Shown piece by piece: positions 15,990 to 58,810 of a DNA stretch of 64,000 bases (within the stretch, counting starts at the first letter, position 1; every line of letters starts with the position of its first letter). The notes beneath the pieces were generated by a model that was given only the letters and a program-made list of their open reading frames with translations, made no database searches and was not told the origin of the DNA. The position numbers were made by a program, and so were the translations under genes. The DNA comes from Methanocaldococcus sp. 28A (lineage in GTDB: Archaea > AGJL01 > Methanococci > Methanococcales > Methanocaldococcaceae): NCBI GenBank assembly GCA_049852185.1, contig CP187540.1, one strand, 5' to 3'.

Positions 15990-16140
15990 ACACAAGACAA
16001 ACATAATCTTTATATACCTGATTTAATATGACATTTACTTTATTAATAGATAGAATTATGATAGAATTATTAAAAACTCTTATACTGAGATTTGAAAAAG
16101 ACAAAAAATATAGCAAATATACAAAAAAGGGGGCAATATT

Positions 16141-16589: not shown

Positions 16590-16675
16590 TTGTCTAACCG
16601 ATTCATGACTTATACTCTTAAACTGTTAGAGAAACAAACTAACCTTTTTTAACGATAATCCTAAATAATACACAG
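16590..16675 (-). pseudogene. IS6-family transposase N-terminal fragment
   Basis: Minus strand reads CYLGLSLKKVSLFL*QFKSISHESVRQ; a degenerate IS6 end (..CTAACAGTCTC) lies near 17000-17012. Confidence 0.65.
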
Positions 16676-42961: not shown

Positions 42962-42987
42962 ATAAACTTTTTTTATTTTTTATTTTT

Positions 42988-43104
42988 TAGAACTTTCGCA
43001 GGAATAAATGTTAAAAGGTATATTGAAGCCCTTTGGGCATCATATTTTCATTAGCAAATATATAAAGTGCGAAAGTCCTATTAAACATAGTTGCGAAAGT
43101 CCTA
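42988..43104. repeat. Family B repeat plus an extra right end
   Basis: TAGAACTTTCGCA...TGCGAAAGTCCTA (to 43080), with a second TGCGAAAGTCCTA at 43092-43104. Confidence 0.85.
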
Positions 43105-43118
43105 TGAAATTCTACTAA

Positions 43119-43214
43119 CCATAGAGCTTCGCCCTATTGTTTTACCCCCATAGGGGCAAAGCCCCTATTGGTATACCCCAGGATGCATTGCCTCGCTTCG
43201 CTCGGCAATGCCTC
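43119..43214. repeat. Cluster of GC-rich REP-like hairpins, family C
   Basis: ATAGAGC-TTC-GCCCTAT, TAGGGGC-AAA-GCCCCTA-TTGGTATACCCCA, GCATTGCC-TCGCTTCGCTC-GGCAATGC. Confidence 0.8.
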
Positions 43215-43236
43215 TTAATATGTAAAAGGTGAAACC

Positions 43237-44244
43237 ATGAAATTCTACGATAGAGAAAGAGAAGTAAATTTTTTAAAAACCTACTGCCAATTAGAGCCGA
43301 ATTCTATACTATTTGTTTATGGGCCAAAATCATCAGGTAAAACTACTGTAATGCTTAGGGTTATTGAAGAATTGTCTAAAAATGAGGATATTATTTTCTT
43401 TTATTACGATTTGAGGAGGTATGCAACACCTACAAAAGAAGAATTTTTAGAAATATTTTTTGAGAAATCAGATAAAAAATATTTACTAAATAGATTTGAG
43501 ATTAATCTAAAAATATGGAGATTTGGGGTTGAGGAAAAGTTTGATTTTAACAATATAAAGTTAAATGATGTGTTTGATAAGATTTATGAGGGCATTGAAG
43601 CAGTTATTAAAGATGGAAAAAAACCAGTTTTAATTATTGATGAGTTGCAGAAGTTGAAAAATATTTATTTTAATGGAGGTAAATCCTTATTAAATGAATT
43701 GTTTAATTTATTTGTTCATTTAACAAAAGTTAGGCACTTATGTCATGTAATTTGCTTAACTTCCGATACTTTGTTTATTGAAGAGATTTATAAGAACTCT
43801 ACATTGGAAAATACTTCTGAATATTTCTTAATTGATTGGTTGAGGAAAGGAACTATAAGGAATATTTTAAAAGAGGAGGGTTTTAGTGAAGAAGAGGTTA
43901 ATTATGCTTTAAATTATCTATCATTACCTTATGAGATTACTCAATTGATAAATAATAAAAAACTTGGGTTGAGTGTTGAAGAGACAATAAAAAAGTGGAT
44001 AAATATTGAAAAAGATAAAATAAAATACATAATAAGGAAAAATTTGGACAAAAAAGATGAAATCCTAAAAATACTATCAAAGTTTAAAGATAATATAAAA
44101 ATAAAAAATGATGAGATTGAGGATGAATTATTTGAGACATTAAAGATATTAATTGAGAATGAAATACTGTTTTATGATGTTATTAATGGGATAATTAAGC
44201 CAACATCTATAAAGAAGTGGTTTGCTATAAAGGATATAATCTAA
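43237..44244 (+). CDS. Archaeal (MJ-type) ATPase, copy 1
   Basis: MKFYDRE.E, Walker A YGPKSSGKTT, Walker B IIDELQ, LTSD. Confidence 0.9.
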   Translation: MKFYDREREVNFLKTYCQLEPNSILFVYGPKSSGKTTVMLRVIEELSKNEDIIFFYYDLRRYATPTKEEFLEIFFEKSDKKYLLNRFEINLKIWRFGVEEKFDFNNIKLNDVFDKIYEGIEAVIKDGKKPVLIIDELQKLKNIYFNGGKSLLNELFNLFVHLTKVRHLCHVICLTSDTLFIEEIYKNSTLENTSEYFLIDWLRKGTIRNILKEEGFSEEEVNYALNYLSLPYEITQLINNKKLGLSVEETIKKWINIEKDKIKYIIRKNLDKKDEILKILSKFKDNIKIKNDEIEDELFETLKILIENEILFYDVINGIIKPTSIKKWFAIKDII

Positions 44245-44282
44245 CAAATATTAAAATACATAAAAATAGAGTGGGTGGGTTT

Positions 44283-44729
44283 ATGAGTGAGGATATAATT
44301 GGAGCAACATTTCCAATACCTAAACCCTTAATAGGAAGAATATTAGATGAGCATAAAAATGTTTTTGTCAAGCCCGCAACATTAACCAAGCTTGAGAAAG
44401 GTATGAAAATTATATTTTATGCTTCAAGGGAGGAACAAGGATTTTATGGAGAGGCTGAGATTGAGAAAGTAGAGTTTTTTGAAAATCCAATGAAAATATT
44501 GGAAAAATATAAAGATGAGATGTTTTTAACTGAAGAGGAGTTTAAAGAATATATTGACTCCTCCAAAAAGTGGGGTTATGGTAGAAAAAAGAAAAAACCT
44601 TGGATGGTTATTGTTCTAAAGAATATTAAAAAGTATTCTAAGGTTGTTAAGCCAAAGAGGTTTATTACTGTTGGAGGGCGATATGTTAAAGAGAAAGAAT
44701 ATAAGGAAATTTTAAATAGAGCAATCTAA
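44283..44729 (+). CDS. DUF365-like PUA/ASCH-fold protein
   Basis: GATFPIPK..RI..KNVFVKP, IFYAS...GF.GEA.I, FLTEEE, ITVGGRY. Confidence 0.75.
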   Translation: MSEDIIGATFPIPKPLIGRILDEHKNVFVKPATLTKLEKGMKIIFYASREEQGFYGEAEIEKVEFFENPMKILEKYKDEMFLTEEEFKEYIDSSKKWGYGRKKKKPWMVIVLKNIKKYSKVVKPKRFITVGGRYVKEKEYKEILNRAI

Positions 44730-44820
44730 ATTATTAATTTAAATAATGAATTTTATATAATTTTATATATAGTAAAATATTGGGGATTAAACTATTGCAT
44801 TAATTAAAGGGGGTTAATAT

Positions 44821-47800
44821 ATGGAGAGATTTATAGAGAATCCAAAGTTTCCAATAAGAGAAATTAATGAGAAGAGTGAAAAAGAGAAAGGTGCTGCAAG
44901 ACCTCCATATTGGGAAATGGTATTTTATTGGACAAGAAAACCATTAATTGGAGCAAGAGGAGTTATTGCTGGCTGTTTATTACCTTATGACATTGACTTA
45001 GAGAGATTTAAAAATGCTATAGCACTTAATGAAAAAACTCCTCACAGGGAAAGTCCAAAAATTCGTAATGATTGGAAGAAGTATTTTGAAGGTAAAAAGT
45101 TATTAGACCCATTTGCAGGTTTTGGTTCTATTCCATTGGAAGGGTTGAGATTAGGTTTAGATGTTACAGCAGTTGAGTTATTACCCACAACTTATGTATT
45201 TTTAAAAGCAGTTTTAGAATATCCAAAAAAGTTTGGTAAGACACTTATAAAAGATGTGGAAAAGTGGGGGAATTGGATAACTGAAAGATTGAAAGAAGAT
45301 GAAGATATAAAAGAACTTTATGATGAAGATATTGCTGTCTATATAGGAACTTGGGAGATAAAATGCCCACACTGTGGGAAATTTACCCCTGCAATAGGCA
45401 ATTATTGGTTAGCGAGAGTTAAAGACAGCAAAGGATACAAAAGATTGGCATATATGAAACCAGAGTTTAATGGGGAGAGTGTAAATATAAAAGTTATTGA
45501 TTTAAATGCAATTTTTGGTAGTGTTGAAAATGCAAAGGTGGATACTAAGAACAACACTATTGTTTTTGTTGGAGATAATTATATAGAGAAGGTTAAGAAG
45601 GCTGTAGAAAAGGGAATTTTAAAAGAGGGTGATTTTGTAATTGATGGTAATAAAGTTGTGTTTAAAGTTCCTTCTGCTAATATAGAATCAAGAAGAAGCC
45701 AATTAACATGTCTATGTTGTGGAAATATTATAAAATATGCAGATGAAGAGGGAAGGCATTACATTGACAGAAAGAAGGGGAATAATGAATTTTATGTAAA
45801 ATTTGCTTTAAAGAAATATCATTCTGGAGATGAAAATTATGCAAGGCAGAGGTTATTGGTTAAGGTTAAAATTAAAGAGAGGGATTTAACTTTTGAACCA
45901 TGCATTGAAGAAGATAACAATAAGTTGTTAATTGCCAAACAAAAGATTAATGAGTTGTTGAGTAATGGGGATGTTGATATTCCAACCGAATCTGTTGCTC
46001 CCTGGGGTTCAAAAGGAATGGGAGGAGATATTAAAACTATCACATGGGGATTAACAACGTGGGATAAACACTTTAATCCAAGGCAGTTATTGACATTGAT
46101 AAAAATAGTTAAACTAATTAGAGAAGTTGGTAAAAAAGTAGAGGAAGAGAAAATTAATGAAGGTTGGGATAAAGATAAAGCATTTGAGTATGCTGAGGCT
46201 ATTGCTACTTATTTGAGCATGGCTATGTTGAAATATGCTGATTATAGTTCAATTTCTACAAGGTGGAACTCATCTTTAATTATGGCTAATACATTATCTA
46301 CACGAGGTATAGCAATGGTTTGGAATTATTTTGAAATCTCACCATTTGCAAAATGGACTGGCTCATGGAGACAGGGAATTGAATATACAATTCCAAAATC
46401 CTTAGAATATCTTACTGATGCCATCTCACCTAAACAAAAAACTCTAACTGAAATAATAAAATCAAATTCAATAAATATTATACAAGGGGATGCTACTTCA
46501 TTAAACCTAAATGAAAAATTTGATATTATTGTTACCGACCCACCTTATGCTGATGATGTTCCTTATACAGAATTATCTGACTTTTATTATGTTTGGCTTA
46601 AAAGAGCTTTATCTGATGTTGAAAACAACAAGTTAATTCCAAGATTCCATAAAGATGCATTCTTTAAAAAAATAGGTAAAAAATACAAGGAGATAAAAAC
46701 CCAATGGCAGGAATTTGCTAAAAAAGAAGTATCTGAAAATGCTGGAAGATTTATGAATGAGGAAAATAAAAAAGAACTTGCTAAAAAACACTTTGAAAAT
46801 CTCTTCTCTCAAGCATTTATATCTATGAGAAACCATTTAAAAGATGATGGGATTTTAGTAACCTATTATGCCCACACAAACCCAGAATCATGGGCAAATC
46901 TCTTAGAGGCTGGCTGGAAGAGAGCAAAACTAACAATAACAAGAGCCCTACCTTTAACAACTGAATCAAAGCAAAACATTGTATCAAGAGGCAAACTATC
47001 CTTAGATACTTCCATAATTGCCATCTGGAAAAAGAAAACTCTAAAAGATAAAACTTTAATCTCTACCCTAATACCAAAATTAAGAGAGAAAGGAAGAGAG
47101 ACAGCAGAGTTGTTAATAAAACATGGACAGCATGATTTAGATTTATTATATGGTGTAATGGCTGGTATATTAGAAGAGATAACCCAATACAATGAAATTG
47201 TTAGTCCAGAAGGAAAATTAACAACAAAAGATATCCTTGATAAATATGTTTATCCATTAACAATATACAGCATTATAGATGCAATTTCAAAAGAAAAAGA
47301 GGGGGCCTTGAAAATTACTACAAAACCAGCCCTCTTCTATACCACTTACAAAATCCTATTTGGTAGTAAAACATTGGGAAGTGGTGATTTAATCTTATTA
47401 AATATTTCAACAGGAATTGATGCTAAAAAGGCTGTTGAATATAATCTAATAAAAGAAGAGAGTAAAGGATTTGTCTTAAACTCTCCTGACTTAATAAAAG
47501 AACTTAATGAAAAATATCTCTACCAGTTTTTAATTGAGAAAGACATAAATCCAACAAATCCAGAAATAAAAACATCAATAGATATATTGCATTTGCTTGA
47601 ATACTATGCCTTTGCTTATGCAATAGATGCATTCAAATCTAAACTTGAAGAATTGAAAAGTAAATACCCAACAGAAACTGAAGAAGCAATAAATATTGCC
47701 AAACTAATAAACAAATATTATGCAAGTGTATTTAAAGAAATATACGCAGGCAAAAAAGACAGTGAGATTGATAAACTACTCCAAAAAGATAAAATTTATG

Positions 47801-47853
47801 AAATCTATCTAATAAGAAGATTAGTAAGATTCTTAGAAGGAAAAGCATTTTAA
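44821..47853 (+). CDS. DUF1156/COG1743 DNA N6-adenine methyltransferase with Zn ribbon
   Basis: YWTRKPL N-terminus, SAM motif DPFAGFGSIP, CPHC...CLCC, FNPRQL, catalytic TDPPY, ELSDFYYVWLKR. Confidence 0.9.
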   Translation: MERFIENPKFPIREINEKSEKEKGAARPPYWEMVFYWTRKPLIGARGVIAGCLLPYDIDLERFKNAIALNEKTPHRESPKIRNDWKKYFEGKKLLDPFAGFGSIPLEGLRLGLDVTAVELLPTTYVFLKAVLEYPKKFGKTLIKDVEKWGNWITERLKEDEDIKELYDEDIAVYIGTWEIKCPHCGKFTPAIGNYWLARVKDSKGYKRLAYMKPEFNGESVNIKVIDLNAIFGSVENAKVDTKNNTIVFVGDNYIEKVKKAVEKGILKEGDFVIDGNKVVFKVPSANIESRRSQLTCLCCGNIIKYADEEGRHYIDRKKGNNEFYVKFALKKYHSGDENYARQRLLVKVKIKERDLTFEPCIEEDNNKLLIAKQKINELLSNGDVDIPTESVAPWGSKGMGGDIKTITWGLTTWDKHFNPRQLLTLIKIVKLIREVGKKVEEEKINEGWDKDKAFEYAEAIATYLSMAMLKYADYSSISTRWNSSLIMANTLSTRGIAMVWNYFEISPFAKWTGSWRQGIEYTIPKSLEYLTDAISPKQKTLTEIIKSNSINIIQGDATSLNLNEKFDIIVTDPPYADDVPYTELSDFYYVWLKRALSDVENNKLIPRFHKDAFFKKIGKKYKEIKTQWQEFAKKEVSENAGRFMNEENKKELAKKHFENLFSQAFISMRNHLKDDGILVTYYAHTNPESWANLLEAGWKRAKLTITRALPLTTESKQNIVSRGKLSLDTSIIAIWKKKTLKDKTLISTLIPKLREKGRETAELLIKHGQHDLDLLYGVMAGILEEITQYNEIVSPEGKLTTKDILDKYVYPLTIYSIIDAISKEKEGALKITTKPALFYTTYKILFGSKTLGSGDLILLNISTGIDAKKAVEYNLIKEESKGFVLNSPDLIKELNEKYLYQFLIEKDINPTNPEIKTSIDILHLLEYYAFAYAIDAFKSKLEELKSKYPTETEEAINIAKLINKYYASVFKEIYAGKKDSEIDKLLQKDKIYEIYLIRRLVRFLEGKAF

Positions 47854-47876
47854 ATTTAAACTTTTGAGGGATAAAA

Positions 47877-48464
47877 ATGTCTAATTATCTAAAAGGAATA
47901 TTTGAAGATTTGGAACCAGAGGAAAAAATCATCCTCTATGCATTGGGAGCTTTAAACAACACTCCCTTAAATAGCAAAATAAAACTCCATAAATTGTTAT
48001 TCTTAGTTTCTAATGTATTTCCGCAACTAAATGAATTACTTGAATTTGAAGAACACTTTTTAGGTCCTTACAGTGAAAAAATAAACTATATCCTCGACGA
48101 TTTAATTAGTTTGGGATTGGTAGAAAAAAAAGGTAGCAAATACAAACTTACTGAAAAAGGAATGGAGATATATAAACGACTAAAACCAAAACCAGGACTA
48201 AAAGAGGTCTTAGAAGATTTTAAAGAATTTATACACGATTTAACAGATGATGAAATATTGGCATTTATCTATGTCTCATATCCAAAATATACCAAAGAAT
48301 CTATAAAGTGGGATGAATTGAAAAAACAAAGAGTTGATTTAGCCATCTCATTACTAAAAAAACAAAAAATTAGTTTTGGAAAAGCTGCACAAATAGCTGG
48401 ACTCTCTCCTATGGAATTTGAAGAATTGCTTTTAAAAAGAGGGATAAAGTGGAGGGGAATATAA
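47877..48464 (+). CDS. Putative antitoxin: N-terminal wHTH (SocA/YwgA-like) fused to a C-terminal UPF0175 HTH
   Basis: KLHKLLFL...F....GPYS; C-terminal ISFGKAAQIAGLS..EF..LL.KRGI. Confidence 0.7.
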   Translation: MSNYLKGIFEDLEPEEKIILYALGALNNTPLNSKIKLHKLLFLVSNVFPQLNELLEFEEHFLGPYSEKINYILDDLISLGLVEKKGSKYKLTEKGMEIYKRLKPKPGLKEVLEDFKEFIHDLTDDEILAFIYVSYPKYTKESIKWDELKKQRVDLAISLLKKQKISFGKAAQIAGLSPMEFEELLLKRGIKWRGI

Positions 48465-49027
48465 CGGTCAAAATTCTTGATAATACAGTAATAAGTGCAA
48501 GTTTAAAAGAAATAAAAACCATTAACCTCATAGAAAGATGTTTAAAAAGATATAAATTAGTTACATCAGAATATGTATTTGTAGAGACATTAAAAGGATT
48601 TTCAAATCCTACAATCGAAAATTGCTATTCAGATATTGAAGTCCATGAAATTAATGAAGAAATGTTTAATTTTCTTTTAGATTACTTAGAAAGGAGATTC
48701 CCATATTTACACAGAGGAGAACTTTCATCCTTCTTAGTGGCTTTATTAAAATATGCTGAAAATGGTAAATCATATTACTATGTAACAGACGACCGTAGAA
48801 TGAGAGATACAATCTCTAAAATTTTAAATGACCCGATAGTAAAATCAAAATTAAAAAATCCTATAACTCCAGAAAATTTTAACCTAACAGGGACTATTGG
48901 GCTTCTTTTAAGATTAAAATATAGGGGATTAATATCAAAAGAGGAAGCTAAAAAGATTGCAGATGATTTAGAAAACAGTTCTTTTAGAGTAACTCCTGAA
49001 CTATTAAAAAAATTGAGAGAGGATTGA
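48449..49027 (+). CDS. PIN-domain (VapC/DUF3368-like) ribonuclease toxin
   Basis: ILDNTVI, V..E, LHRGE.S, VTDDR, GTIGLL; overlaps the antitoxin stop. Confidence 0.8.
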   Translation: MEGNITVKILDNTVISASLKEIKTINLIERCLKRYKLVTSEYVFVETLKGFSNPTIENCYSDIEVHEINEEMFNFLLDYLERRFPYLHRGELSSFLVALLKYAENGKSYYYVTDDRRMRDTISKILNDPIVKSKLKNPITPENFNLTGTIGLLLRLKYRGLISKEEAKKIADDLENSSFRVTPELLKKLRED

Positions 49028-49028
49028 T

Positions 49029-50126
49029 ATGGGCAAGCTGAAAGTTCATATAAACTCTATAGATGAAAATTTAATGTTTAGAAGCTTGGATATAAAGGTA
49101 GGTTCTAAAACAATGGCAACCACTCCAATAAAAGTTAGCCCTCCAGAACACCCAATAAGTCCTATAAATGAGGTATATAAAAAATTTTCTATTGATAAAT
49201 TGAAAAAATGCAATATTGACAACTCTATAGAAACAAAGACAAACCAGGAAATAAGAAAATGTTTAATAGCAGATAAGTTAAATATGGTTATTGTTGATTA
49301 TACCTCTGATATTTTACCTAAAAAAGAACACTTAGAAGTTTTAATGGATTTGCAATATAATGGAGATGTTGTTATAACTCCAATTTTCTCTAAACTCGTA
49401 AAAACTCTTAAAGAGGAAAAACTAAAAAATACATTCATTAAATTAACAAATCAATGTATAGAAATAGCAAATACCTTAAATAATAAAACTATAGTTGGAA
49501 TAATCCCAGCAAAGATGCCAAGACAATTTATTGAGGATATTATAAAAAACTATGTTGATAAAAATATAACTCATTACATTATAGACCTTGATAGGAGAAC
49601 TATCTCAGCGAATACTTCTTGGATTATAAAGTTATTTAGAACTATCCATGATAATGGAATTCTTGATGAAACTTTGTTATATTGTGTTAATGGTAGTGAA
49701 GGTAAATTCTTAAAAAATGCTGAGGTAATCCCTGCTCATGATTTTATAAATTCTGGTTTTGGAATTGATATATTAGGTTTGAAACATGTCCCTCCTCAAT
49801 TACCTCCAGAAGTATGGGCAAAATTAAAAAATATAAAAAAGGAAGAAATTTATAGAATATTTAATAGAAATACTTATGGTTATCATAAAGTAAATGTGGA
49901 GATTCTCCAAAATTTGGGACTATTTCCTAACCAAAATACTGTAAAAATCTATAATATAGAAAAACAGTTTGATGAAGCCATTTATTTACAAAACCTTCTT
50001 AAGGAAGAATCAACCGTAGAGCAATATGTGTCATCAAAATCTCAAATGAAAGATATAATTCCAGAAATCAAAAAAGTTAAACATGAAGTTAAAGAAAAAT
50101 CAATGAAACTTGATTTTTTCCTATAA
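49029..50126 (+). CDS. Divergent TGT (tRNA-guanine transglycosylase)-like TIM-barrel protein
   Basis: N-terminal D...R..I......TP pattern, LQ..GDVVITP, IVGIIP, FGIDILG. No Cys/His zinc site. Fold is inferred. Confidence 0.5.
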   Translation: MGKLKVHINSIDENLMFRSLDIKVGSKTMATTPIKVSPPEHPISPINEVYKKFSIDKLKKCNIDNSIETKTNQEIRKCLIADKLNMVIVDYTSDILPKKEHLEVLMDLQYNGDVVITPIFSKLVKTLKEEKLKNTFIKLTNQCIEIANTLNNKTIVGIIPAKMPRQFIEDIIKNYVDKNITHYIIDLDRRTISANTSWIIKLFRTIHDNGILDETLLYCVNGSEGKFLKNAEVIPAHDFINSGFGIDILGLKHVPPQLPPEVWAKLKNIKKEEIYRIFNRNTYGYHKVNVEILQNLGLFPNQNTVKIYNIEKQFDEAIYLQNLLKEESTVEQYVSSKSQMKDIIPEIKKVKHEVKEKSMKLDFFL

Positions 50127-50207
50127 ATAAGTTGATAATTAATATATAGACTTGGATTTGCTTATTCCATGGTGATAAAATGAAATTCTACTAACTTGGT
50201 GAATATT

Positions 50208-51227
50208 ATGAAATTCTACGATAGAGAGAAAGAAGTTAAATATTTAAAAACTTACTGCCAGTTAGAGCCAAACTCTATATTATTCGTCTATGGACCAAAA
50301 TCTTCTGGCAAAACTACTGTAATGCTTAGAGTTATAGAAGAACTAAACAAAAGGGATGATATAATATTCTTCTACTACGATTTAAGGGAATATGCGACAC
50401 CAACAAAAGAAGAGTTTTTAAGTATATTCTTTGAAAAATCAGACAAAAAATATCTTTTAAATAAATTAGAAATCGATTTAAAAATATTTAAATTTGGAGT
50501 AGAAGAGAATTTTGATTTTAATAATTTATCATTAAATGATGTTTTTAATAAAATAAAAGAAAGCATCAAAGAGGTTGTTAAAGAAGGTAAAAAACCTATA
50601 TTGGTTATTGATGAATTGCAGAAATTAAAGAGCATCTATTTCAATGGTGGTAAATCCTTACTAAATGAGTTATTTAATCTATTTGTCCATCTAACAAAAG
50701 TTAGGCATCTATGTCATGTTATTTGTTTAACCTCTGATACTTTGTTTATTGAGGAGATTTATAAGAACTCTACATTAGAGAATACTTCTGAATATTTTTT
50801 AATTGATTGGTTAAATATAGATGATATTAAAAACATTCTAAAAGAAGAGGGTTTTAGTGAAGAAGAGGTTAATTATGCTTTGAATTATATATCATTACCT
50901 TATGAAATCTCACAATTAATAAATAATAAAAAATTAGGTTTATCTGTTGAAGAAGCAATAAAGCAGTGGATTAATATTGAGAGAGATAAAATTTTATATT
51001 TAATATCAACTCAAAAGGAATTTGAGATGAAAAATTTAGAAAATGCTCTGAAATTATTTGAAGATAAAATAAAAGTTGATATCAAAGAGATAATAAAAAA
51101 CAATCTTATGGATGAGGTTAAATTTTTGATAAAAAATGAGATTTTATTTTATGATGTAATAAATGGCATAATTAAGCCAACTTCTGTAAAAAAATGGTTT
51201 GCTATTAAAGAAATAATTATGGGTTAA
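50208..51227 (+). CDS. Archaeal (MJ-type) ATPase, copy 2
   Basis: Close paralog of 43237-44244 with the same Walker motifs; ATG after GGTGA. Confidence 0.9.
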   Translation: MKFYDREKEVKYLKTYCQLEPNSILFVYGPKSSGKTTVMLRVIEELNKRDDIIFFYYDLREYATPTKEEFLSIFFEKSDKKYLLNKLEIDLKIFKFGVEENFDFNNLSLNDVFNKIKESIKEVVKEGKKPILVIDELQKLKSIYFNGGKSLLNELFNLFVHLTKVRHLCHVICLTSDTLFIEEIYKNSTLENTSEYFLIDWLNIDDIKNILKEEGFSEEEVNYALNYISLPYEISQLINNKKLGLSVEEAIKQWINIERDKILYLISTQKEFEMKNLENALKLFEDKIKVDIKEIIKNNLMDEVKFLIKNEILFYDVINGIIKPTSVKKWFAIKEIIMG

Positions 51228-51289
51228 AAGCCTCTAACTTAATGCATTCAGTATTCGAATAAGCATTTGACGCATAGATTGACGAAGTC

Positions 51290-51397
51290 TTGGGGTATCC
51301 CGAACCATAGGGCTAATGCCCTATTGGTATGAACCTTTTAGAAAAAGGTTCATCAAAAAATTTTGGGGTATACCAATAGGGGCGAAGCCCCTAATGG
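51290..51397. repeat. Family C hairpin cluster
   Basis: ATAGGGC-TAAT-GCCCTAT, ATGAACCTTTT-AGA-AAAAGGTTCAT, TGGGGTATACCAA-TAGGGGC-GAA-GCCCCTA (inverse of the 43149-43180 unit). Confidence 0.8.
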
Positions 51398-51431
51398 TAA
51401 TGAAATAATCTAAAAAGTGGAGGGGAGAAAA

Positions 51432-54400
51432 ATGCAAAAATTAAAAGTTTGGGAGGATGTTTTAGATGAGACATTAGATATGCAGGTAGCTCCTGAATTG
51501 GGAGATGTTGTAAATAAAACTGCTCACAAAATTTATACTGAACCAGAGGAATTCTTTAAAAGAACTTACTTTACTGATTCCATGGTTCAAATACTTGATA
51601 GGCTATTAAATACCTTAAGTGGGGATGAAAGACACAATATATTCTTAATATATTCTCTTTTTGGGGGAGGGAAGACACATACAATATTAACCATATACCA
51701 TGCAGTTAATAATCCTGATTCACTTACAAATGAAAATATTCTAAAAGATTATCCTGAAGATAAAAAAGAGAAAATAAAAAGTATTGGAATAAAATTAAAA
51801 GACTTTCAAAATCAAAACATAAAAATACTTCCAATATATGGTAAAGGAAGCTTAGGGCAACCAAGTAATCCATTAAACTTCGGTGCTTATGAAGTTAAAA
51901 CCTTATGGGGCTATATAGGACATTACTTAGGAAAGTATGCACTTGTTGAAAAATATGATAAAAACTTAACAGTTCCTCCAATAGACACAATTAGAGAACT
52001 TTTAAAAGGAAATAAAGTTGTGTTTTTAGTTGATGAAATTGTTCATTATATTGATAATTTATACAATAGTGGAAATGAAGATGATAGGAGATACGCAAAA
52101 AATATCTGTAAGTTTTTTGACGCTTTATCAACTGCATTAATTGGAACTGATAGTATAATGATTCTAACCTTACCAATGGAAAAAGATGGGGAAAAAGTTG
52201 AAAAAGGGTATAATAAGGAGATAGTTCTTTCACTTCATAGAGCAGTTGAGAGAGTCGGGGGAGCAGAACTTTACTCACCACTAAGAACCGAAGGAATTTC
52301 AGGTGGAGAAATTGTTGAAATTTTAAAAAAGAGAATTTTTGAAGACATAGACAAAGATTTTAAAGAGAAGATTATTGAAAAATATAGAGAAGCTTATTCA
52401 AACACTGATATATTTGGTAGATTTGAAAATAATTTATCAAAAACATATCCTTTTCATCCAGATTATATAGCAACGCTTAGAACTATAGTTGAAAGAGGGA
52501 ACTTGCAGAAAACAAGGGATATGGTTAGAATAACAAGAATTGTTATAAGAAACTTATTACAAGAAGAAGAGTTTCCTACCTTAATAATGCCATATCATAT
52601 AAATCCAAGAAATGAAAAACTAAAAGGGATATTGTTTGGAAAAAATCAAACATTTGCTGATTATGGAGGAGCTGTATTAGATGTAGATTTATCTCTTGAA
52701 AAATTTAAAAGATTTTCAAAACCAGAATTGGCAGAAATTATTTTGAGATACATATTCTTAAAAACCTATCCTTATGATTCTCCAATACCACTTGAAGGAT
52801 TCCCAAAAAAAGATAGTATTGCAAGGGCAGTTTATGAAATCAATTTCTTTGAAAGATATGCATTGCAATTAACTGATATTCCAAACACAATAAGTGAAAT
52901 TGAAAAAAGCTCATCATTCATATATTTAAACAAAAAAGATGGAATCTTCTGGTTTTGGAGAGTTGCAAATGTATCTCAAATGGTTGAAAGTAAAAAAGAT
53001 GAATTACTCTCCCTCCATATAATTGGTGTTTATAGAAAACTTGAAGAATTTGTTAAGAGGCATGTAGGAGGAAAAGGATTAAAAACCAAAAAAATTGAAG
53101 AGAATAAAATAACATTTTTTAAAAAGAATAATATTGTAGTATCAAGAGACGCACAAGAGTTCCAAGATGATGAAGATTATAAATTGCAAATACTCATAAG
53201 AGATGATGTTGATAAATCTACACTTTATAGAATAATTTATCAGTATGGGACTGGAACAAGAACATATAGAAATACAATAACTGTTTGTTATGCTGATAAA
53301 TCCCTAAACAAATTGCTTGAAATAACTGCTCGTATAATGGCATGTGAGAAAGTAAAAGACGATATTAAAGCAAAATATAAATCTTATGGAGAGGAGGTTG
53401 TTCAAATACAATCAAATATGGTAAGGACTATTGAAGATGATGCAAAAGCAGAATTTGATGAATCTGTAGCCAGCATATTTAAAAAAGTTGCATATCCTAA
53501 AGATAATGATGTGGAAATTGTTGATGCTACTCCAACATCCAAGTCAATACTTGAAAATGTATATTCAACACTTGTTGAATGGGGAAAAATTCCATCAAGT
53601 CTAACTTTTGAAGGTCTTGAATATTATTTAAATGAGGTAAATATATCCTTTGATAAACCAATTTATTTTTCAGAACTTAGAAGTATTATTAGAACTAATA
53701 CAAAACTTCCATTTATTACTGATGAACAATTAAAAGAAGTGATAAAAGAAGGAGTTGAAGACCTAAAAATTGGTATTGAGAGAGATGGAAGAGTTTTATT
53801 TAAAAGAATCTATCAAAATGTTCCTAATCATAATGAATCTGGAGTTCCTCTCAATGACATAAAAGAAAATGATATAATCTTGCCTCAAATAATGGCATTA
53901 AACAAACAAATAAACCAGATTTTAAAAGAAGAAAAGGATGAAGTTGTTGATAATAAGTATAAAAAGGTTTGGTATGAGGTTTATATTTCAGATTCTGAAT
54001 CATTGCCACTAAGAGAACTCGTTGAAGAAACAGAAGATGGCTTTATTGTTAAATCTGAGTTTGTAGATTTAGTAATAAATGGATATATAGTAAGAAAGAG
54101 TGAAGAGAAGATTATTGGAGAAAGAAATGAGTTTTCTTTGAAATTGGATAGACATAATATTGAAGGAAAACCAGGAGAAGATGTAGATGTAAAAGTAATA
54201 ATAACACCGTTAAAAGGCAATGATTTTGAAGTGAATATTGAAGTTGAAGAAGGGATATTAGATTTAACACATGGAAAGGTTCCTTATGAAACAATTTGGC
54301 ATATAAAAATTCCTGAATCTAAAAAAACTTATGAGATAAAAGCAATATCTGAAGATGGTGTAGTAAAAACTGATAAAATAACCATCACTCCAAGAACTGA

Positions 54401-54746
54401 TATTGTAGATGTTCATGAATTATCTGAAAACTTAAAAGGAGGAAAATTATTAGAAATAAAGGGAATTAAATCCTATGATGATTTATGTATGATTCCTGAA
54501 AACTTAAATGTCAAAGTTAGAGGAAACTTTATTATTGAAAATGATGAATACTTTAAAGCAGATTTCAATAATCTACCTCTTGATGTTGTAAAATATATTA
54601 TTGAAGAGATAGAAGGAGTTATAGAACATAAGGCAAAGTTAGACGTAGATATTATTTTTACAGAAGAGATAAAAATTGATGACTTAATATTTGAGAAACT
54701 TAGATGCTTAAATAAAAAAGTAGTATTTAAAATTAAAAAATGCTGA
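51432..54746 (+). CDS. DUF499/COG1483 AAA+ ATPase with beta-rich C-terminal domains
   Basis: FF.RTY.T, Walker A FGGGKTH, TLWG, Walker B FLVDE, IL.KRIF, YPFHP, Q.TR. Confidence 0.88.
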   Translation: MQKLKVWEDVLDETLDMQVAPELGDVVNKTAHKIYTEPEEFFKRTYFTDSMVQILDRLLNTLSGDERHNIFLIYSLFGGGKTHTILTIYHAVNNPDSLTNENILKDYPEDKKEKIKSIGIKLKDFQNQNIKILPIYGKGSLGQPSNPLNFGAYEVKTLWGYIGHYLGKYALVEKYDKNLTVPPIDTIRELLKGNKVVFLVDEIVHYIDNLYNSGNEDDRRYAKNICKFFDALSTALIGTDSIMILTLPMEKDGEKVEKGYNKEIVLSLHRAVERVGGAELYSPLRTEGISGGEIVEILKKRIFEDIDKDFKEKIIEKYREAYSNTDIFGRFENNLSKTYPFHPDYIATLRTIVERGNLQKTRDMVRITRIVIRNLLQEEEFPTLIMPYHINPRNEKLKGILFGKNQTFADYGGAVLDVDLSLEKFKRFSKPELAEIILRYIFLKTYPYDSPIPLEGFPKKDSIARAVYEINFFERYALQLTDIPNTISEIEKSSSFIYLNKKDGIFWFWRVANVSQMVESKKDELLSLHIIGVYRKLEEFVKRHVGGKGLKTKKIEENKITFFKKNNIVVSRDAQEFQDDEDYKLQILIRDDVDKSTLYRIIYQYGTGTRTYRNTITVCYADKSLNKLLEITARIMACEKVKDDIKAKYKSYGEEVVQIQSNMVRTIEDDAKAEFDESVASIFKKVAYPKDNDVEIVDATPTSKSILENVYSTLVEWGKIPSSLTFEGLEYYLNEVNISFDKPIYFSELRSIIRTNTKLPFITDEQLKEVIKEGVEDLKIGIERDGRVLFKRIYQNVPNHNESGVPLNDIKENDIILPQIMALNKQINQILKEEKDEVVDNKYKKVWYEVYISDSESLPLRELVEETEDGFIVKSEFVDLVINGYIVRKSEEKIIGERNEFSLKLDRHNIEGKPGEDVDVKVIITPLKGNDFEVNIEVEEGILDLTHGKVPYETIWHIKIPESKKTYEIKAISEDGVVKTDKITITPRTDIVDVHELSENLKGGKLLEIKGIKSYDDLCMIPENLNVKVRGNFIIENDEYFKADFNNLPLDVVKYIIEEIEGVIEHKAKLDVDIIFTEEIKIDDLIFEKLRCLNKKVVFKIKKC

Positions 54747-54826
54747 TTTTAAGTAGTTTTTTATATCATTTTATATTATTTTTTCCTTCCTATTATTTTT
54801 TTATTTCTTTTTTGTGAGGTGATTTT

Positions 54827-55282
54827 GTGAAAGGAAATACTCAATATATGGTTAAACTTAGATATATTAAGCCTATAAAATTGCCAATTGTAAAAGAACA
54901 AAAATTAGCAGAATTTATTCCTATAATTCCTCTTGAGGACAACAAATACATAAAAGGTAAAATTGAAGGAGTTGCGAGAGTATTTCTTCCAGAGTTTATT
55001 AATTTCGCTAAACACCTTGGATTTGAAGTTTCTGGTAAAAAGAGGATAACATTAAAAACTGATGATGATTATGCATATCTAAAATTGTTTGTCTATGCCA
55101 TGGTTATGCAAGCATTAAAAGATAATACAATGTGGGGAAAGTTAGAAGACCACATTCTTTCTATGGAACCTCTATCCTTACGTTATTGGGCATCAACTTT
55201 TAGAAGTAGATATTGGGAATATAATAATAGAAGAAAATTATTAAAAATAGCAAAATGTTTTTTGGAAGTTGAAGAACTTTAA
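54827..55282 (+). CDS. Small accessory protein in the position usually held by DUF3780
   Basis: GAGGTGA ribosome-binding site; M....L.YW motif; lies between the DUF499 ATPase and the helicase. Confidence 0.6.
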   Translation: MKGNTQYMVKLRYIKPIKLPIVKEQKLAEFIPIIPLEDNKYIKGKIEGVARVFLPEFINFAKHLGFEVSGKKRITLKTDDDYAYLKLFVYAMVMQALKDNTMWGKLEDHILSMEPLSLRYWASTFRSRYWEYNNRRKLLKIAKCFLEVEEL

Positions 55283-55285
55283 AAA

Positions 55286-55332
55286 TAGGACTTTCGCAGG
55301 AATAAATATATTAGTATTGAATATAGACACCT
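55286..55332. repeat. Partial family B repeat
   Basis: TAGGACTTTCGCAGGAATAAAT, matching the start of the 42988 copy; truncated. Confidence 0.7.
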
Positions 55333-55353
55333 AATTATGTGGGGGGATGAAAA

Positions 55354-58353
55354 TTGCAAAATAAAATAAAAAACTATCTCATAAAAAAGATATTTTTGCA
55401 TGACCCATTACTATTTTTCTATGCTTTAAATCATCCTGCATCAAAAAAACAAATAAAGCCATTTATACACCAAATTTATCTCCTATACAATGCTATGCTT
55501 CTTCGTCCAGTCCGTTTTTTAATTGCAGATGAGATTGGCTTAGGTAAAACAATAGAATCTCTTACAATAGCAAGATATTTAGAACTAAAAGATGGGATAA
55601 AAAAGATTTTAGTTTTAACTCCAAAAATTTTAAGAGAGCAGTGGGTTTCAGAAATAAAAAGAGTTGGAGGAATTCCAAGGATTGTTAAAAATGGGAATGA
55701 TATAAATAATATTAAAAGTTTTTTACAGTATTATGATTCTGCAGTTTATATTATAATCTCAATAGACCTTGCAAAAAGGTATGTTGATAAAATATTGCAA
55801 ATTGATTGGGACTTAGTTATTGTTGATGAAGCCCATAACATTACCAAAAATACTCAAAGGGGAAAATTAGTAGAAAAACTTTCAAAAAAAGTAAGAAATA
55901 TGCTTTTACTTTCCGCAACTCCACACAGAGGAGACCATCAAGATTATCTATATAGATTAAAGATTTTAGATTACACACTTATAAATGATTTTGACAAATT
56001 AAATACTCAAAATTTCTATCGTAAGACTCATGACATATTAGTTTTTAGAAGGACAAAAAAATTAGTAAATGCCCTTGAGAATAAAAAAGTCTTTAAAGAT
56101 TGCCAGTTTAATGCAGTAGTAGTGGATATATCAGAAGAGGAAAAAATATTTTTTAACCTTCTTGAAAATACTCTTAAAAATATACTGAAAAATACAAAAA
56201 AGAGTTCTCCAATAGCTCTTTTAGCAGTGATTTTAGGTAAGAGGGCATCTTCAAGTTATAAAGCAGCAATTGAAACACTGAATAGGATTATAAAAAGTAG
56301 CATTTTAAAAACTGATGATATTGATGTGTCAGAAGATATTCAAAACCTCTTCTCATTAAGTTTTGAAGAAATAGAATTTGAAGATTATAGAGAAGTATCT
56401 GACATAATAAATAATATTGTTGATAAATATTCACCCTATTTAAGCCAAGAACAAAAAGAATTATTTGAAAATCTCCTTAAAACAACAACTAACATTATAG
56501 TTAAAAAAGATAGTAAAATTGATGCTTTAGCAAAAATTATTGCAGAACATATTGAAAATAATGAGAAAATTGTAGTATTTACTGAATATGTTGATACTCT
56601 CAAATATCTTCAAGAAAATCTGCCTAAGTATCTAAATAACTATGGTGTTAAAATAGACACAAATGAAATATTAACACTTTCAGGAGAGGACAAAAATAGG
56701 ATGGAGAATATTACTGAGGAGATTAATAAAAAATTTGGGGATTATGGAAAAATTTTACTGGCAACAGATGTCGCTTCTGAAGGTCTTAATTTACAAATTG
56801 CAAGTGTCCTAATAAATTATGACTCCCCATGGAGTCCTATAAAATTAGAGCAAAGAATTGGTAGGGTTTGGAGGTTAGGGCAAGAAAAGGACGTGTCTAT
56901 TTATAATATTTTCCTTTCAAATAGAATGGACTTGGAACTACTCAATAACCTTTATAAAAAAATTATGAATATTAAAACTGCACTTGATAATCAATTAGCA
57001 ATAGGTAAGGAGATATATATTGCAAATGCTGAAAATCTATTTAACTTAGAAGAATTCGCATACATAAAAAACTTGTCCGAGTATGATATTATAATTTCAG
57101 CAATAATTGGAGAGTTAGGCAGTTATACAGAAGAAATTGTCAAAACTCTAAAAGTTATTAGAAATAAGCTAAAAATAATGGGTATTTTTCCAGAAGAACG
57201 TGCTGAAGAAATAAAAAAGGAAGTTTTAAATGTTATCCAAAACGAAAATTATTTAGAGATTGAAAAGGTTGAAGAAATTTTGAGGGACTATCATGATAAA
57301 GTCTTAAATGACAAAATAAATACCCAAAATATGTGGTATCAAATCATAAAATCAAAAAATGATAAAGATTTACAAATATCAAGAATTGTTATAAAGAATC
57401 AATTTAAAAATAGGGAATATTTGTTTTTTGTAAAGATATTAAATGAAGATAATGAGATTGTTTGGGAAATTCCATTGATGGTCTCTTATCAAAAAAAAAT
57501 TAAGTTAATGACAAGTGTTGAATTGTTAAAATACTTAACAACAATCTTTAGCAAAGATTTATTTTTCACAGAATACATAGAAAAACCTAATGAAAAGCAA
57601 GTATTGGCTATTAAAGGAAATGTCCTTACTTATGCCAGAAGTATTGTAAGTAACATAAATAAAAGAATTTCAAATTACGAAAATCTCATGGATTCAGGTT
57701 TAAAAGATGATAAATTATTTAAGAATTTGAAAATAAGTGTTAGTAATCCTATAATTATTGATTATCTGCCAGAGAAGGAATTTTCAATTGGAAAAGTTAT
57801 TCCTTTAGATATTGTGGATAATTTAGATAGAGATAATATTATTTTACCAGATGAAAATGATTTAAAGGTAATAAATAGGAATTTTCTGCCCCTTGAAGAA
57901 CTTGTGAAAATTGAAAAATTGGCTATGAATGTTATAATGAATCTCGAAGAACAAAGATTAGCAAGTAAATATGGATATGAAAATAAAGGTAAGATTTGGG
58001 ATGTTTTAGATGTCTCTCTACATGAGCATTATGATATAAAAGTTATTGAAAATGGAGAGGAGAAGTATATTGAAGTAAAAGGTCATAAGGGATTATTACC
58101 AATTGCAGAACTTACAGAGGCGGAATACAGATTTGCCATGGAAAATAAAGATAAATACTACCTATATATTGTTTGTAATATTGGGGAAGATGGGAAAAAT
58201 GCTATAATATTTGAGATTCATAATCCTTTAGACAATGAAAATAGAAAAGTTTATTTAATTAGAGATGGGGAAAAAATAGATATAAGCAAACACTATAAAA
58301 ATACTAACATCGTTGAAAGAAAAAGATATCTCCTAAAATTGGGACAAAAATAG
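55354..58353 (+). CDS. SWI2/SNF2 helicase fused to a DUF3883 (PD-(D/E)XK) nuclease
   Basis: HQ, ADEIGLGKT, DEAH, SATP, FRRTK, VFTEY, SEGLNLQ, EQRIGRV.R.GQ; C-terminal YDI...IEVKG....LT..E. Confidence 0.92.
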   Translation: MQNKIKNYLIKKIFLHDPLLFFYALNHPASKKQIKPFIHQIYLLYNAMLLRPVRFLIADEIGLGKTIESLTIARYLELKDGIKKILVLTPKILREQWVSEIKRVGGIPRIVKNGNDINNIKSFLQYYDSAVYIIISIDLAKRYVDKILQIDWDLVIVDEAHNITKNTQRGKLVEKLSKKVRNMLLLSATPHRGDHQDYLYRLKILDYTLINDFDKLNTQNFYRKTHDILVFRRTKKLVNALENKKVFKDCQFNAVVVDISEEEKIFFNLLENTLKNILKNTKKSSPIALLAVILGKRASSSYKAAIETLNRIIKSSILKTDDIDVSEDIQNLFSLSFEEIEFEDYREVSDIINNIVDKYSPYLSQEQKELFENLLKTTTNIIVKKDSKIDALAKIIAEHIENNEKIVVFTEYVDTLKYLQENLPKYLNNYGVKIDTNEILTLSGEDKNRMENITEEINKKFGDYGKILLATDVASEGLNLQIASVLINYDSPWSPIKLEQRIGRVWRLGQEKDVSIYNIFLSNRMDLELLNNLYKKIMNIKTALDNQLAIGKEIYIANAENLFNLEEFAYIKNLSEYDIIISAIIGELGSYTEEIVKTLKVIRNKLKIMGIFPEERAEEIKKEVLNVIQNENYLEIEKVEEILRDYHDKVLNDKINTQNMWYQIIKSKNDKDLQISRIVIKNQFKNREYLFFVKILNEDNEIVWEIPLMVSYQKKIKLMTSVELLKYLTTIFSKDLFFTEYIEKPNEKQVLAIKGNVLTYARSIVSNINKRISNYENLMDSGLKDDKLFKNLKISVSNPIIIDYLPEKEFSIGKVIPLDIVDNLDRDNIILPDENDLKVINRNFLPLEELVKIEKLAMNVIMNLEEQRLASKYGYENKGKIWDVLDVSLHEHYDIKVIENGEEKYIEVKGHKGLLPIAELTEAEYRFAMENKDKYYLYIVCNIGEDGKNAIIFEIHNPLDNENRKVYLIRDGEKIDISKHYKNTNIVERKRYLLKLGQK

Positions 58354-58369
58354 TTAGATATGCGATATT

Positions 58370-58810
58370 ATGACATATTGGCTCTGCATAACAAATGAAG
58401 ATAATTGGAAAGTGATAAAAGAAAAGAAAATTTGGGGAGTGGCAGAGAGACATAAGAATACACTAAGTAAAGTTAAAGTTGGAGATAAACTAATTATTTA
58501 TGAAATTCAGAGGAGTGGAAAGGATTATAAACCTCCATACATTAGAGGCGTTTATGAAGTAATCTCTGAAGTTTATAAAGATTCTACAAAAATTTTTAAA
58601 CCAACTCCAAGAAATCCTAATGAGAAATTTCCATATAGAGTTAAACTTAAAGAAATTAAAGTTTTTGAACCTCCAATTAACTTTAAAGATTTAATTCCAA
58701 AACTTAGATTTATCACCAATAAAAAGAAATGGAGTGGGCATTTAATGGGAAAAGCAATGAGAGAAATTCCTGAGGAAGATTATAAATTAATTGTTGAATC
58801 TAAAGCTTAA
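58370..58810 (+). CDS. EVE domain protein (PUA-like)
   Basis: YWL.IT..NW.....WGV, VK.GD.LI.Y, F.....E.FPYRV, MREI.EEDY. Confidence 0.9.

Follow-up and report, generated by a model that had tools for sequence, protein, structure and literature searches.

A probable four-gene form of the Hma defence system in an accessory island of Methanocaldococcus sp. 28A

A window of 64,000 nucleotides from the archaeon Methanocaldococcus sp. 28A (contig CP187540.1), the whole stretch of DNA analysed here, carries eleven co-oriented open reading frames (ORFs) on its plus strand between tatD and carB (43237-58810), none of them with an internal stop. The question raised by this locus is which system these genes encode and how many of them belong to it. 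A preliminary description of the same DNA had read all eleven as a complete defence island built on a DUF1156-DUF499-SNF2/DUF3883 triad and likened to bacteriophage exclusion (BREX) and type III restriction-modification (R-M) systems. The ORF list and the translations confirm the eleven frames, and Pfam and PADLOC profile matches show that the triad is real and complete. The island reading has to be narrowed: four ORFs, encoding a DUF1156 methylase, a DUF499 ATPase, a 151-aa protein and an SNF2 helicase-nuclease, form the conserved core and are the system proper, and the other seven are not core, six being variable cargo or flanking paralogues and the seventh, an EVE gene, lying outside the insertion. 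The locus is probably an island of ~15.4 kb that was acquired horizontally, with hotspot cargo and, as its core, a four-gene archaeal Type-1 BREX-related (BR), or Hma (helicase, methylase, ATPase), R-M-like system.

The E-values given below are those of Pfam and PADLOC profile matches to the window ORFs, for which the NCBIfam and PHROG libraries were also scanned; the comparison set consists of 17 genomes of the genus, including that of the window itself (G000, 99.94% complete). The methylase (HmaB, or BR-MTase; 44821..47853, +) is a DUF1156 N6-adenine DNA methyltransferase of 1010 aa that matches PF06634 (E 4e-9) with a methyltransferase core and, over its full length, the PADLOC model MTase_II PDLC03352 (1358 bits). 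It carries FAGFG at residue 98 and DPPY at 573, and its insert holds two CxxC pairs (CPHC at 182, CLCC at 297). The ATPase (HmaC, or BR ATPase; 51417..54746, +) is an ORC/Cdc6-type AAA+ protein of the form without HEPN, covered by PF04465 (DUF499) over residues 115-1108 (E 5.7e-292), with Walker A at 83-88 (GGGKTH) and Walker B at 202 (VFLVDE); residues F82, G83, G84, G85, K86 and H88 are invariant among 25 homologues. Its relatives fall into 120 clusters, and those with names are nearly all archaeal. The helicase (HmaA, or Type-1 BR helicase; 55354..58353, +) matches SNF2-rel (E 2e-19) and Helicase_C (E 2.9e-21), with GLGKT at 62, DEAH at 158 and QRIGR at 500. Its tail, a NOV_C/DUF3883 domain (PF13020, residues 853-948, E 6e-16), bears D894-I-K ... 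E907-V-K909, and from the catalytic residues D894 and E907-V-K909 the nuclease is predicted to be active. Between the ATPase and the helicase lies the gene of the 151-aa basic protein (54827..55282, +), the fourth core gene, which belongs to no described family. All the motifs previously listed (FAGFG, DPPY, GGGKTH and the PD-(D/E)xK tail) were thus found in the translations. The suggested PADLOC comparison gave matches to HmaA (E 2.7e-61), HmaB (E 1.8e-50) and HmaC (E 3.9e-43). With the Hma models at 1e-43 to 1e-61 and DUF499 at E 5.7e-292, a chance match is excluded. On these profile matches, and because of its domain content (DUF1156, DUF499, and SNF2 with Helicase_C and NOV_C), the core is assigned to the Type-1 BR/Hma systems. 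Intact orthologues of the four core proteins occur in G012, G015 and G016, with identities of 75-93% (87-90% for the DUF499 protein).

Other assignments were compared with the same ORFs. None of the eleven matches PglZ, and PF08665 has no match in the 99.94%-complete genome (control: 2/14 genomes), so the system is BREX-related yet not canonical BREX, as had been proposed; BrxA-, BrxB- and BrxL-like families are likewise absent among the ORFs (Pfam, PADLOC). The NCBIfam equivalogs of Type-2 systems score far under their cut-offs (116 vs 1000, 77 vs 1200 and 159 vs 1100 bits). No Pfam family of the phospholipase D (PLD) nucleases was found, and the NCBIfam model phospholipD_antiphage covers helicase residues 282-544 only (159 bits vs 1100). 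[quoted passage not shown] The comparison with type III R-M survives as an analogy only, through the site-orientation dependence reported for a sister system named MANTIS; no feature that would mark a member of that class was found, the methylase matching DUF1156 and UPF0020 and not PF01555, and the helicase match to ResIII (E 2.5e-12) being generic for superfamily 2 helicases.

The earlier view that such triads are merely predicted and poorly characterised is out of date. The name Hma was given to a three-gene candidate system with 1,638 occurrences (Payne et al. 2021). HmaA of Halomonas, which has the domain set of the window helicase (Snf2/Helicase_C/NOV_C), has been reported to protect E. 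coli against T4, a defence that needs its helicase and nickase domains, nicking by its nuclease domain being essential (Liu et al. 2024). Rakesh & Krishnan (NAR 2026) report some 3,600 prokaryotic taxa with BR/Hma systems, archaea being well represented among them, and divide these systems into Type-1 (three genes, the helicase with a C-terminal PD-(D/E)xK), Type-2 (in addition DUF3780, and an HKD-helicase without TUDOR) and Type-3 (in addition PglZ and iSTAND). MANTIS, a Type-2 system, has been reconstituted: its methylase, MtsC, is loaded by the ATPase MtsA on asymmetric 6-bp sites that are unmodified, ATP-dependent hemimethylation requires MtsA, MtsC and the small, dimeric MtsB, and restriction, which is at its strongest when sites are paired in inverted orientation, takes all four MANTIS proteins (Shaw et al., bioRxiv 2026).

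The fourth core gene sets the window system apart from the three-gene plan. The 151-aa protein has no family in Pfam, PADLOC (E<=0.01), NCBIfam or PHROGs, and a HMMER search of 1.84 billion representatives recovered 17 clusters at E<=0.001, with lengths of 67-512 aa. Across the four genus genomes that carry it, its identity of 91-93% exceeds that of the other three core proteins. Its isoelectric point (pI) is 9.5, and that of the family lies between 9.2 and 10.1 in 26 of 29 sequences. An AlphaFold2 model (m9bed60b1a6ce; predicted local distance difference test, pLDDT, 90.5) shows an alpha+beta protein with an N-terminal sheet (strands 6-13, 25-35, 41-43 and 48-53, plus two short strands) followed by five helices (56-63, 81-94, 101-111, 115-132 and 136-148). 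This model matches none of the solved structures, reaching a best E of 0.048 in Foldseek (PDB) and a best Z of 5.7 in the wide VIA-align comparison; the PDB sequence profile gave a best E of 0.96, and the ESM Atlas a best value of 0.87, under the 0.9 lead level. The gene was also considered as a detached helicase N-terminal domain and rejected as such at the sequence level, none of the 17 clusters being fused to a helicase.

The genomic context of the family was compared in 17 non-redundant loci, namely the four genus genomes, L047 and L055-L066 (L046 and L054 duplicate G012). DUF499 stands immediately 5' of the small gene in 12 of them, and the SNF2/NOV_C helicase immediately 3' in 11 of those 12, the contig of the twelfth ending there. 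These 12 loci comprise the four genus genomes, a Halobacteriota metagenome-assembled genome (MAG; L047) and seven metagenome loci (one at a contig end), and the methylase lies directly 5' of DUF499 in L056, L057, L059 and L063. In L047 the small gene starts 3 nt past the end of DUF499 and shares 8 nt with the helicase ORF; since this is a Halobacteriota MAG, the linkage spans distant archaeal lineages. In the small-gene tree, linkage to the system occurs in both deep clades, each with 100/99 support.

The helicase differs as well. Where start codons were called (five loci), its motif I is at residue 61-62, and in four more loci, read stop-to-stop, at 98 or earlier, compared with 120-131 in three bacterial plasmid Type-1 helicases, all without the small gene; that is, 61 residues precede motif I here vs 119-130 in the bacterial proteins. 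Profiles align to the window helicase only from position 84 (HmaA), 126 (DrmD) or 152 (RapA). From this length and these profile coordinates we infer that an N-terminal TUDOR domain is missing. According to Rakesh & Krishnan (NAR 2026), TUDOR (roughly 75 residues) is typical of Type-1 and Type-3 helicases and lost in Type-2, where DUF3780 is suggested to replace it. DUF3780 (PF12635) matches none of the 17 members of the small-protein family at E<=1 and none of the 40 genomes of the phylum, though control genomes also gave no match. MtsB itself is described as having no structural relatives and is said to be unique to Type-2, and other proteins may fill its role in other BR systems (Shaw et al.). 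The window system thus combines a Type-1 nuclease architecture with a Type-2-like layout, in which a small protein follows the ATPase and the helicase N-terminus is short, and by analogy the 151-aa protein is a candidate for the 'alternative protein' filling the role of MtsB. Four plasmid records inspected for a Type-2 locus held three Type-1 loci and one SIR2/DUF1156/SNF2 locus. On a Citrobacter plasmid (L071; NZ_CP022275.1, 85205-100233), SIR2, ATP-binding, DUF1156 methylase, 166-aa hypothetical and SNF2-related genes follow one another in this order; this is another DUF1156 system with a small gene ahead of the helicase. No mention of a fourth gene or of a small protein was found in the main text of the NAR 2026 classification, and the small gene may be tabulated in its supplement. 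That supplement aside, the 12/17 linkage of the small gene, its missing family and fold, the short helicase N-terminus and the system-free homologues discussed below may be undescribed.

The methylase offers an indication that it is in use. Its frame is open (993-1012 aa) in all five genomes with this subtype's methylase, G015 included, and the orthologues (G000, G008, G012, G015 and G016) share 76-83% identity. Among these five, residues 1-200 and 551-1010 are 81-95% identical to the window protein, and identity drops to 28-45% in residues 201-300, 49% in 351-400 and 46% in 501-550. The divergent blocks fall in the insert between motifs I and IV. In MANTIS the target-recognition domain of MtsC sits between these same motifs, and exchange of a recognition region alters the methylated site (Shaw et al.). 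The pattern fits selection for new specificities, and since the insert diversifies while the cores stay 81-95% identical, it argues for a methylase in use.

Methylation-based discrimination of self from non-self with ATP-dependent restriction, the mechanism that had been suggested for this locus, is still the best supported by analogy with the characterised relatives. Following MANTIS and Hma, the DUF1156 methylase would use its variable insert to recognise a short asymmetric site, of which it would N6-methylate one strand, and the DUF499 AAA+ ATPase, serving as a switch or loader powered by ATP, would bring the methylase to sites that are unmodified. When incoming DNA holds such sites, they would trigger the SNF2 motor and the PD-(D/E)xK nuclease, resulting in translocation and a nick or cut. 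Judged by its context, the 151-aa basic protein would be a true fourth component, most likely a co-factor corresponding in place to the MtsB (DUF3780) of MANTIS. The cargo (UPF0175/DUF3368, the predicted TGT-fold protein and ATPase_2, with ATPase_2 and DUF365 upstream of the methylase) would have accumulated in an insertion hotspot next to a pre-existing EVE gene.

Several observations weigh against this reading of a four-gene Type-1 system. In the account of Liu et al. 2024, HmaA alone sufficed for defence and HmaB overexpression left T4 infectivity unchanged. The window has the 151-aa gene, in contrast to the three genes of published Type-1 systems, and the N-terminus of its helicase is ~60-70 residues shorter. 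The likeness of the 151-aa protein to MtsB is limited to position, size, charge and context, because a link to DUF3780 was found neither in sequence nor in fold. The small gene stands without DUF499 or SNF2 in 5 of the 17 loci, and the protein can therefore function, or at least persist, outside the system. Finally, tight linkage between methylase and core is not obligatory, since the methylase of G015 lies 93 kb away and G008 has no DUF499 match; the latter genome is 86% complete and its methylase block reaches the contig end.

The five system-free loci bear on the alternative that survives best, although it is unlikely: that the 151-aa protein is a virus or mobile-element gene, for instance for a DNA-binding regulator or an anti-defence protein, lodged in the operon without being a component. 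Two of these loci (L061 and L062; 87% mutual identity around the gene, 28-29% GC) are co-oriented arrays of short ORFs, nearly all without a Pfam or PHROG family, together with TnpB, ThyX and an exonuclease. In L064 the gene adjoins an STIV B116-like gene and an HTH-IrrE gene, L065 comprises 1 kb of sequence only, and L066, an IMG/VR contig of a tailed virus, encodes a large terminase (phrog_2, E 2.5e-41) together with a primase-helicase and a D12 methylase of the Dam type. These ORFan-rich and viral contexts, as well as the basic character of the family, are what a lodged gene would lead one to expect. Against such an origin, the gene keeps the same position between DUF499 and helicase in 11 loci, in both deep clades and in two archaeal lineages, is tightly packed in L047 and is 91-93% identical within the genus. 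Moreover, the virus and element copies nest inside system-linked branches of the tree, L066 being sister to the system-linked L059 (99/100) and L061, L062, L064 and L065 forming a branch of their own (92/100). The conserved family residues are kept in these copies (19/19 in L066, 18/19 in L061 and L062). The context of the gene must have changed at least 2 times on this tree, in which 11 of the 28 rows are of unknown context. In a collection of named phages, tblastn at E<=0.01 found nothing that matches the 151-aa protein.

We retain the 151-aa protein as a probable component of the four-gene system, and a tentative, rather doubtful extension may be put forward: the protein would activate the loading of the methylase by DUF499, replacing the N-terminal domain of the helicase, and viruses and mobile elements would have captured its gene at least twice and would use it against the system. 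Phage lambda Ral is known to boost methylation for type I R-M, and the viral copies could similarly boost methylation of their own DNA, or could titrate the ATPase or the helicase. The viral use of these homologues against the system is offered as a hypothesis only.

A further alternative, also unlikely, holds that the SNF2-nuclease acts alone as a single-protein defence and that the methylase, DUF499 and the small protein are dispensable or regulatory neighbours. The sufficiency of HmaA against T4 in E. coli is its main support, and phage from HmaB-overexpressing cells behaved like wild type; in addition, hmaB lies beside 85.3% and hmaC beside 80.7% of hmaA genes (Liu et al. 2024). In the genus, the DUF499-small gene-SNF2 unit of G015 persists 93 kb from the methylase. 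However, the methylase is open in five genomes with a diversifying insert between conserved cores, and DUF499, small gene and helicase are unseparated in 11 of the 11 loci with downstream DNA. The Halomonas protein was assayed in a heterologous host, and T4 DNA is modified, which bears on that test. The sister system MANTIS, moreover, requires four proteins (Shaw et al.).

The five genomes with this methylase show how its linkage to the core varies. In G012, the methylase, DUF499, small gene and helicase follow each other without intervening genes, and in G016 a single ATPase_2 gene separates methylase and DUF499. The window (G000) has UPF0175, DUF3368, 365-aa and ATPase_2 genes in this interval, and the same block is found in G008 up to the contig end inside ATPase_2. 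In G015 the methylase is open (1012-aa frame), the UPF0175, DUF3368, 365-aa and ATPase_2 genes are frameshifted and an ATPase_2 fragment lies upstream, and the distant DUF499-small gene-helicase unit directly follows another ATPase_2 remnant.

Comparison with genomes that carry no island bears on the role of the EVE gene (58370..58810, +; PF01878, E 5.5e-29; NF002008, 231 bits, above the cut-off of 139). In an arrangement like that of Bell et al. 2020, this gene would encode a functional fifth component that reads a modified base on foreign DNA and directs restriction. The EVE start 16 nt past the helicase stop on the same strand, the recurrent partnership of standalone EVE proteins with such operons in diverse archaea (Bell et al. 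2020) and an EVE pseudogene fragment inside the variant methylase-DUF499 locus of G006 speak for this possibility, which is nevertheless improbable. Synteny between tatD (left flank, 42191-42961; PF01026, E 5e-24) and carB (carbamoyl-phosphate synthase large subunit, in two adjacent minus-strand ORFs of 485 aa and 618 aa, 58807-60663 and 60686-62143) was compared across the genus, and sites without the island were found in G005 and G014. Homology to these empty sites stops at window position 42943 (G005) or 42986 (G014) and restarts at 58362 or 58364, at most 8 bases ahead of the EVE start codon. Because homology breaks at these points, ~15.4 kb (42987..58361) was inserted beside a resident EVE gene. 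In G005, tatD, EVE and carB directly adjoin, in G014 a broken EVE lies between tatD and carB, and in G010 EVE abuts carB, all three genomes being without a DUF499 match. The EVE gene is consequently placed outside the insertion, and its adjacency to the helicase arose by insertion beside a resident gene. In addition, tblastn finds no EVE in the loci of G012, G015 and G016, and EVE matches, broken copies counted, occur in 5 of 8 DUF499 genomes (G000, G003, G006, G011 and G015) vs 5 of 9 others (G004, G005, G009, G010 and G014). These matches in 10 of the 17 genomes (82-94% identity) are patchy and multi-copy, with copies on second contigs of G003 and G005 and broken ones in G009, G010, G014 and G006. 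We thus treat EVE as a pre-existing neighbour, for which a functional link with the core is possible and not required. That the island is an inactive relic, as the frameshifted cargo genes of G015 might suggest, is highly improbable, for the eleven frames are open, the catalytic motifs are intact and the core is 75-93% identical to intact orthologues in three genomes.

The four-gene system preferred here is accessory rather than universal, in line with the preliminary description: PF04465 occurs in 8 of the 17 genus genomes, and this subtype (about 1,100 aa, E<=1e-293) only in G000, G012, G015 and G016. [quoted passage not shown] Judged by this distribution, the island is accessory, mobile and probably horizontally acquired. 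Its GC content is like that of its flanks, and no tRNA, Rfam match, or integrase or transposase family among the ORFs was found as an integration signature. The only terminal inverted pair (42959-42978 and 58238-58257; 20 nt, 85% complementary) was taken as chance, because it is AT-rich and one arm lies within the helicase gene. As a side observation, the tatD-EVE spacer of G014 (L037, ~0.7 kb) is 73-90% identical to window positions 14108-14514, 15824-15990 and 16593-16672; it seems that in that genome the tatD-EVE site is used by a mobile sequence or dispersed repeat as well. The genes directly 3' of the helicase in G012 (L014:110-2953, -, 947 aa) and G015 (L013:17122-17568, +, 148 aa) both have no Pfam family at E<=1e-4.

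The remaining ORFs of the island are cargo or flanking genes. An ATPase_2 gene (PF01637, MJ1010-like; paralogue a, 43237..44244, +, E 1.6e-55) opens the series, followed by a DUF365 gene (44217..44729, +; PF04033, E 5.6e-45), the sole copy in the genome, for which tblastn finds none in the sister loci. Downstream of the methylase lie a wHTH (winged helix-turn-helix) plus UPF0175 gene (47877..48464, +; PF03683, E 4.4e-12, HTH_45) and a DUF3368 (PIN-like) gene (48449..49027, +; PF11848, E 2.5e-10), which overlap by 16 nt; with PADLOC matches of UPF0175 to PDC-S70 and PDC-M19A and of DUF3368 to PDC-S70 (E 1.4e-5), they are read as a putative toxin-antitoxin-like pair, UPF0175 being the putative antitoxin and DUF3368 the putative toxin. 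The UPF0175 gene is present in G008 and frameshifted in G015. After the 365-aa gene (49029..50126, +) comes ATPase_2 paralogue b (50196..51227, +; PF01637, E 1.6e-55), between the methylase block and DUF499. The methylase-to-ATPase interval is a known insertion hotspot, inserted genes having been reported in 66.5% of hma loci (Liu et al. 2024), and in Thermus pVV8 a HicAB pair lies between methylase and DUF499; the block found here is common to G008 and decayed in G015.

Paralogues a and b share 79% aa identity and form direct repeats in two segments (80% nt identity, ~6.97 kb apart) that flank the methylase block. The genome has 15 PF01637 matches, several with internal stops, which make up an expanded, decaying paralogue family; one of these copies lies just beyond the window end (G000:C1:1312316-1313068). 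ATPase_2 genes or remnants also stand beside the system in G016, G015, G012 and G008, and in the variant locus of G001. The paralogues have probably served as recombination substrates for the insertion of cargo and the relocation of the methylase block. GC-rich hairpin repeats resembling GGGGCNAAGCCCCTATTGGTAT occur upstream of ATPase_2 a (43151..43180) and, as related copies, upstream of DUF499 (51310-51330 and 51364-51400; repeats D5, I1 and I16). Genome-wide, the motif matches 9 times, at about 6 places, and a reversed control 0 times; the repeats match no Rfam family.

The 365-aa protein has no Pfam, PADLOC, NCBIfam or PHROG family and no relative in IMG/VR, and its own family comprises 14 clusters in 5.8 billion proteins. 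The confidence of its model is modest (pLDDT 67.9), with a well-predicted core at about residues 46-190. The top four structural matches, the TGT 3unt_A (Z 12.9), the arcTGT 1iq8_A (Z 11.7), the DNA preQ0 insertase DpdA 7ui4_A (Z 11.0) and the CBASS protein Cap10 9ntn_B (Z 10.9), all belong to the tRNA-guanine transglycosylase (TGT) superfamily, generic TIM barrels reaching up to Z 10.4, and TGT is also the top Foldseek match (E 2.7e-4). TGT enzymes carry a CxCxxC...H cluster, and none was seen in the 365-aa translation. A base-exchange or related enzyme within a DNA-modification island is, on this model, a lead and not a finding.

A second, distant DUF1156 methylase (30-31% identity) with a shorter DUF499 (about 885-895 aa) occurs in G001, G003, G006 and G011. 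The G001 variant locus consists of a 449-aa unknown gene, the methylase, a 154-aa unknown gene, ATPase_2 and DUF499, and that of G006 of an MNT/HepT pair, the methylase, an OLD-type AAA_15/TOPRIM gene, a split DUF3226 gene, AAA_21, the EVE pseudogene fragment and DUF499. No SNF2 helicase was found among the scanned ORFs of these loci (L067, G001:C1:365000-383000; L068, G006:C1:449000-468000), the scan covering L067 except for five small or terminal ORFs (three small ones at its start, two at its end) and L068 except for seven (five past purA, two upstream).

Among BR/Hma systems, only the Type-2 form has a reconstituted mechanism, and it depends on a small protein called unique to that type. 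The MANTIS authors anticipated an alternative protein, for which a structurally unrelated 151-aa protein at the same operon position in a Type-1 system is a concrete candidate. Components from a hyperthermophile may be more stable, so that complexes too transient in Pseudomonas may be caught. The virus-borne copies of the small gene are a testable lead to anti-BR counter-defence, and if the viral-capture extension held, one family would supply a co-factor of defence as well as an anti-defence protein. A natural series is seen in the sister genomes, where the methylase adjoins the core (G012), is split from it by cargo (G000 and G016) or lies 93 kb off (G015), and their diverged recognition inserts suit the mapping of specificity determinants.

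Compared with known systems, the window core stands closest in domain content to the Hma/Type-1 BR systems, with which it shares the DUF499 AAA+ ATPase, the DUF1156 methylase whose motifs I and IV are separated by an insert, the SNF2 protein ending in a C-terminal NOV_C nuclease, genes inserted between methylase and ATPase, and a patchy, mobile distribution. It differs in that its ATPase is without a HEPN domain and in its order of methylase, ATPase, small gene and helicase, compared with helicase, methylase and ATPase on three bacterial plasmids. MANTIS/Gao_RL (Type-2 BR) resembles it in having four genes, a small basic protein of no known fold right after DUF499, a helicase without an N-terminal TUDOR (for the window, as inferred from length) and a methylase with motif I, insert and DPPY. 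In contrast, the window nuclease is a C-terminal PD-(D/E)xK and that of MANTIS an N-terminal HKD/PLD, and none of the 17 members of the window small-protein family matches DUF3780. Type-3 BREX/Type-3 BR has a homologous ATPase, methylase and SNF2 helicase, BrxHI/BrxHII matching the window helicase at E 2.7e-60, whereas the window genome is without PglZ and its helicase carries a fused nuclease. For the 365-aa cargo protein, DpdA/TGT/Cap10 are alike in the predicted TIM barrel and the defence-island context and unlike in sequence (7-10% identity, no Pfam TGT match), and Pfam detected no DpdB- or DpdC-like family among the eleven ORFs. The operon of COG1743, DUF499, SNF2-nuclease and EVE genes drawn by Bell et al. 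2020 is also archaeal and has an identical gene order including the downstream standalone EVE; the window EVE, however, predates the insertion and has no counterpart in the sister loci. Set against these relatives, the value of the locus lies in a four-gene archaeal variant, virus-borne homologues and a series of rearranged loci; otherwise, it is a usual representative of its family, which has been named, classified and in part characterised.

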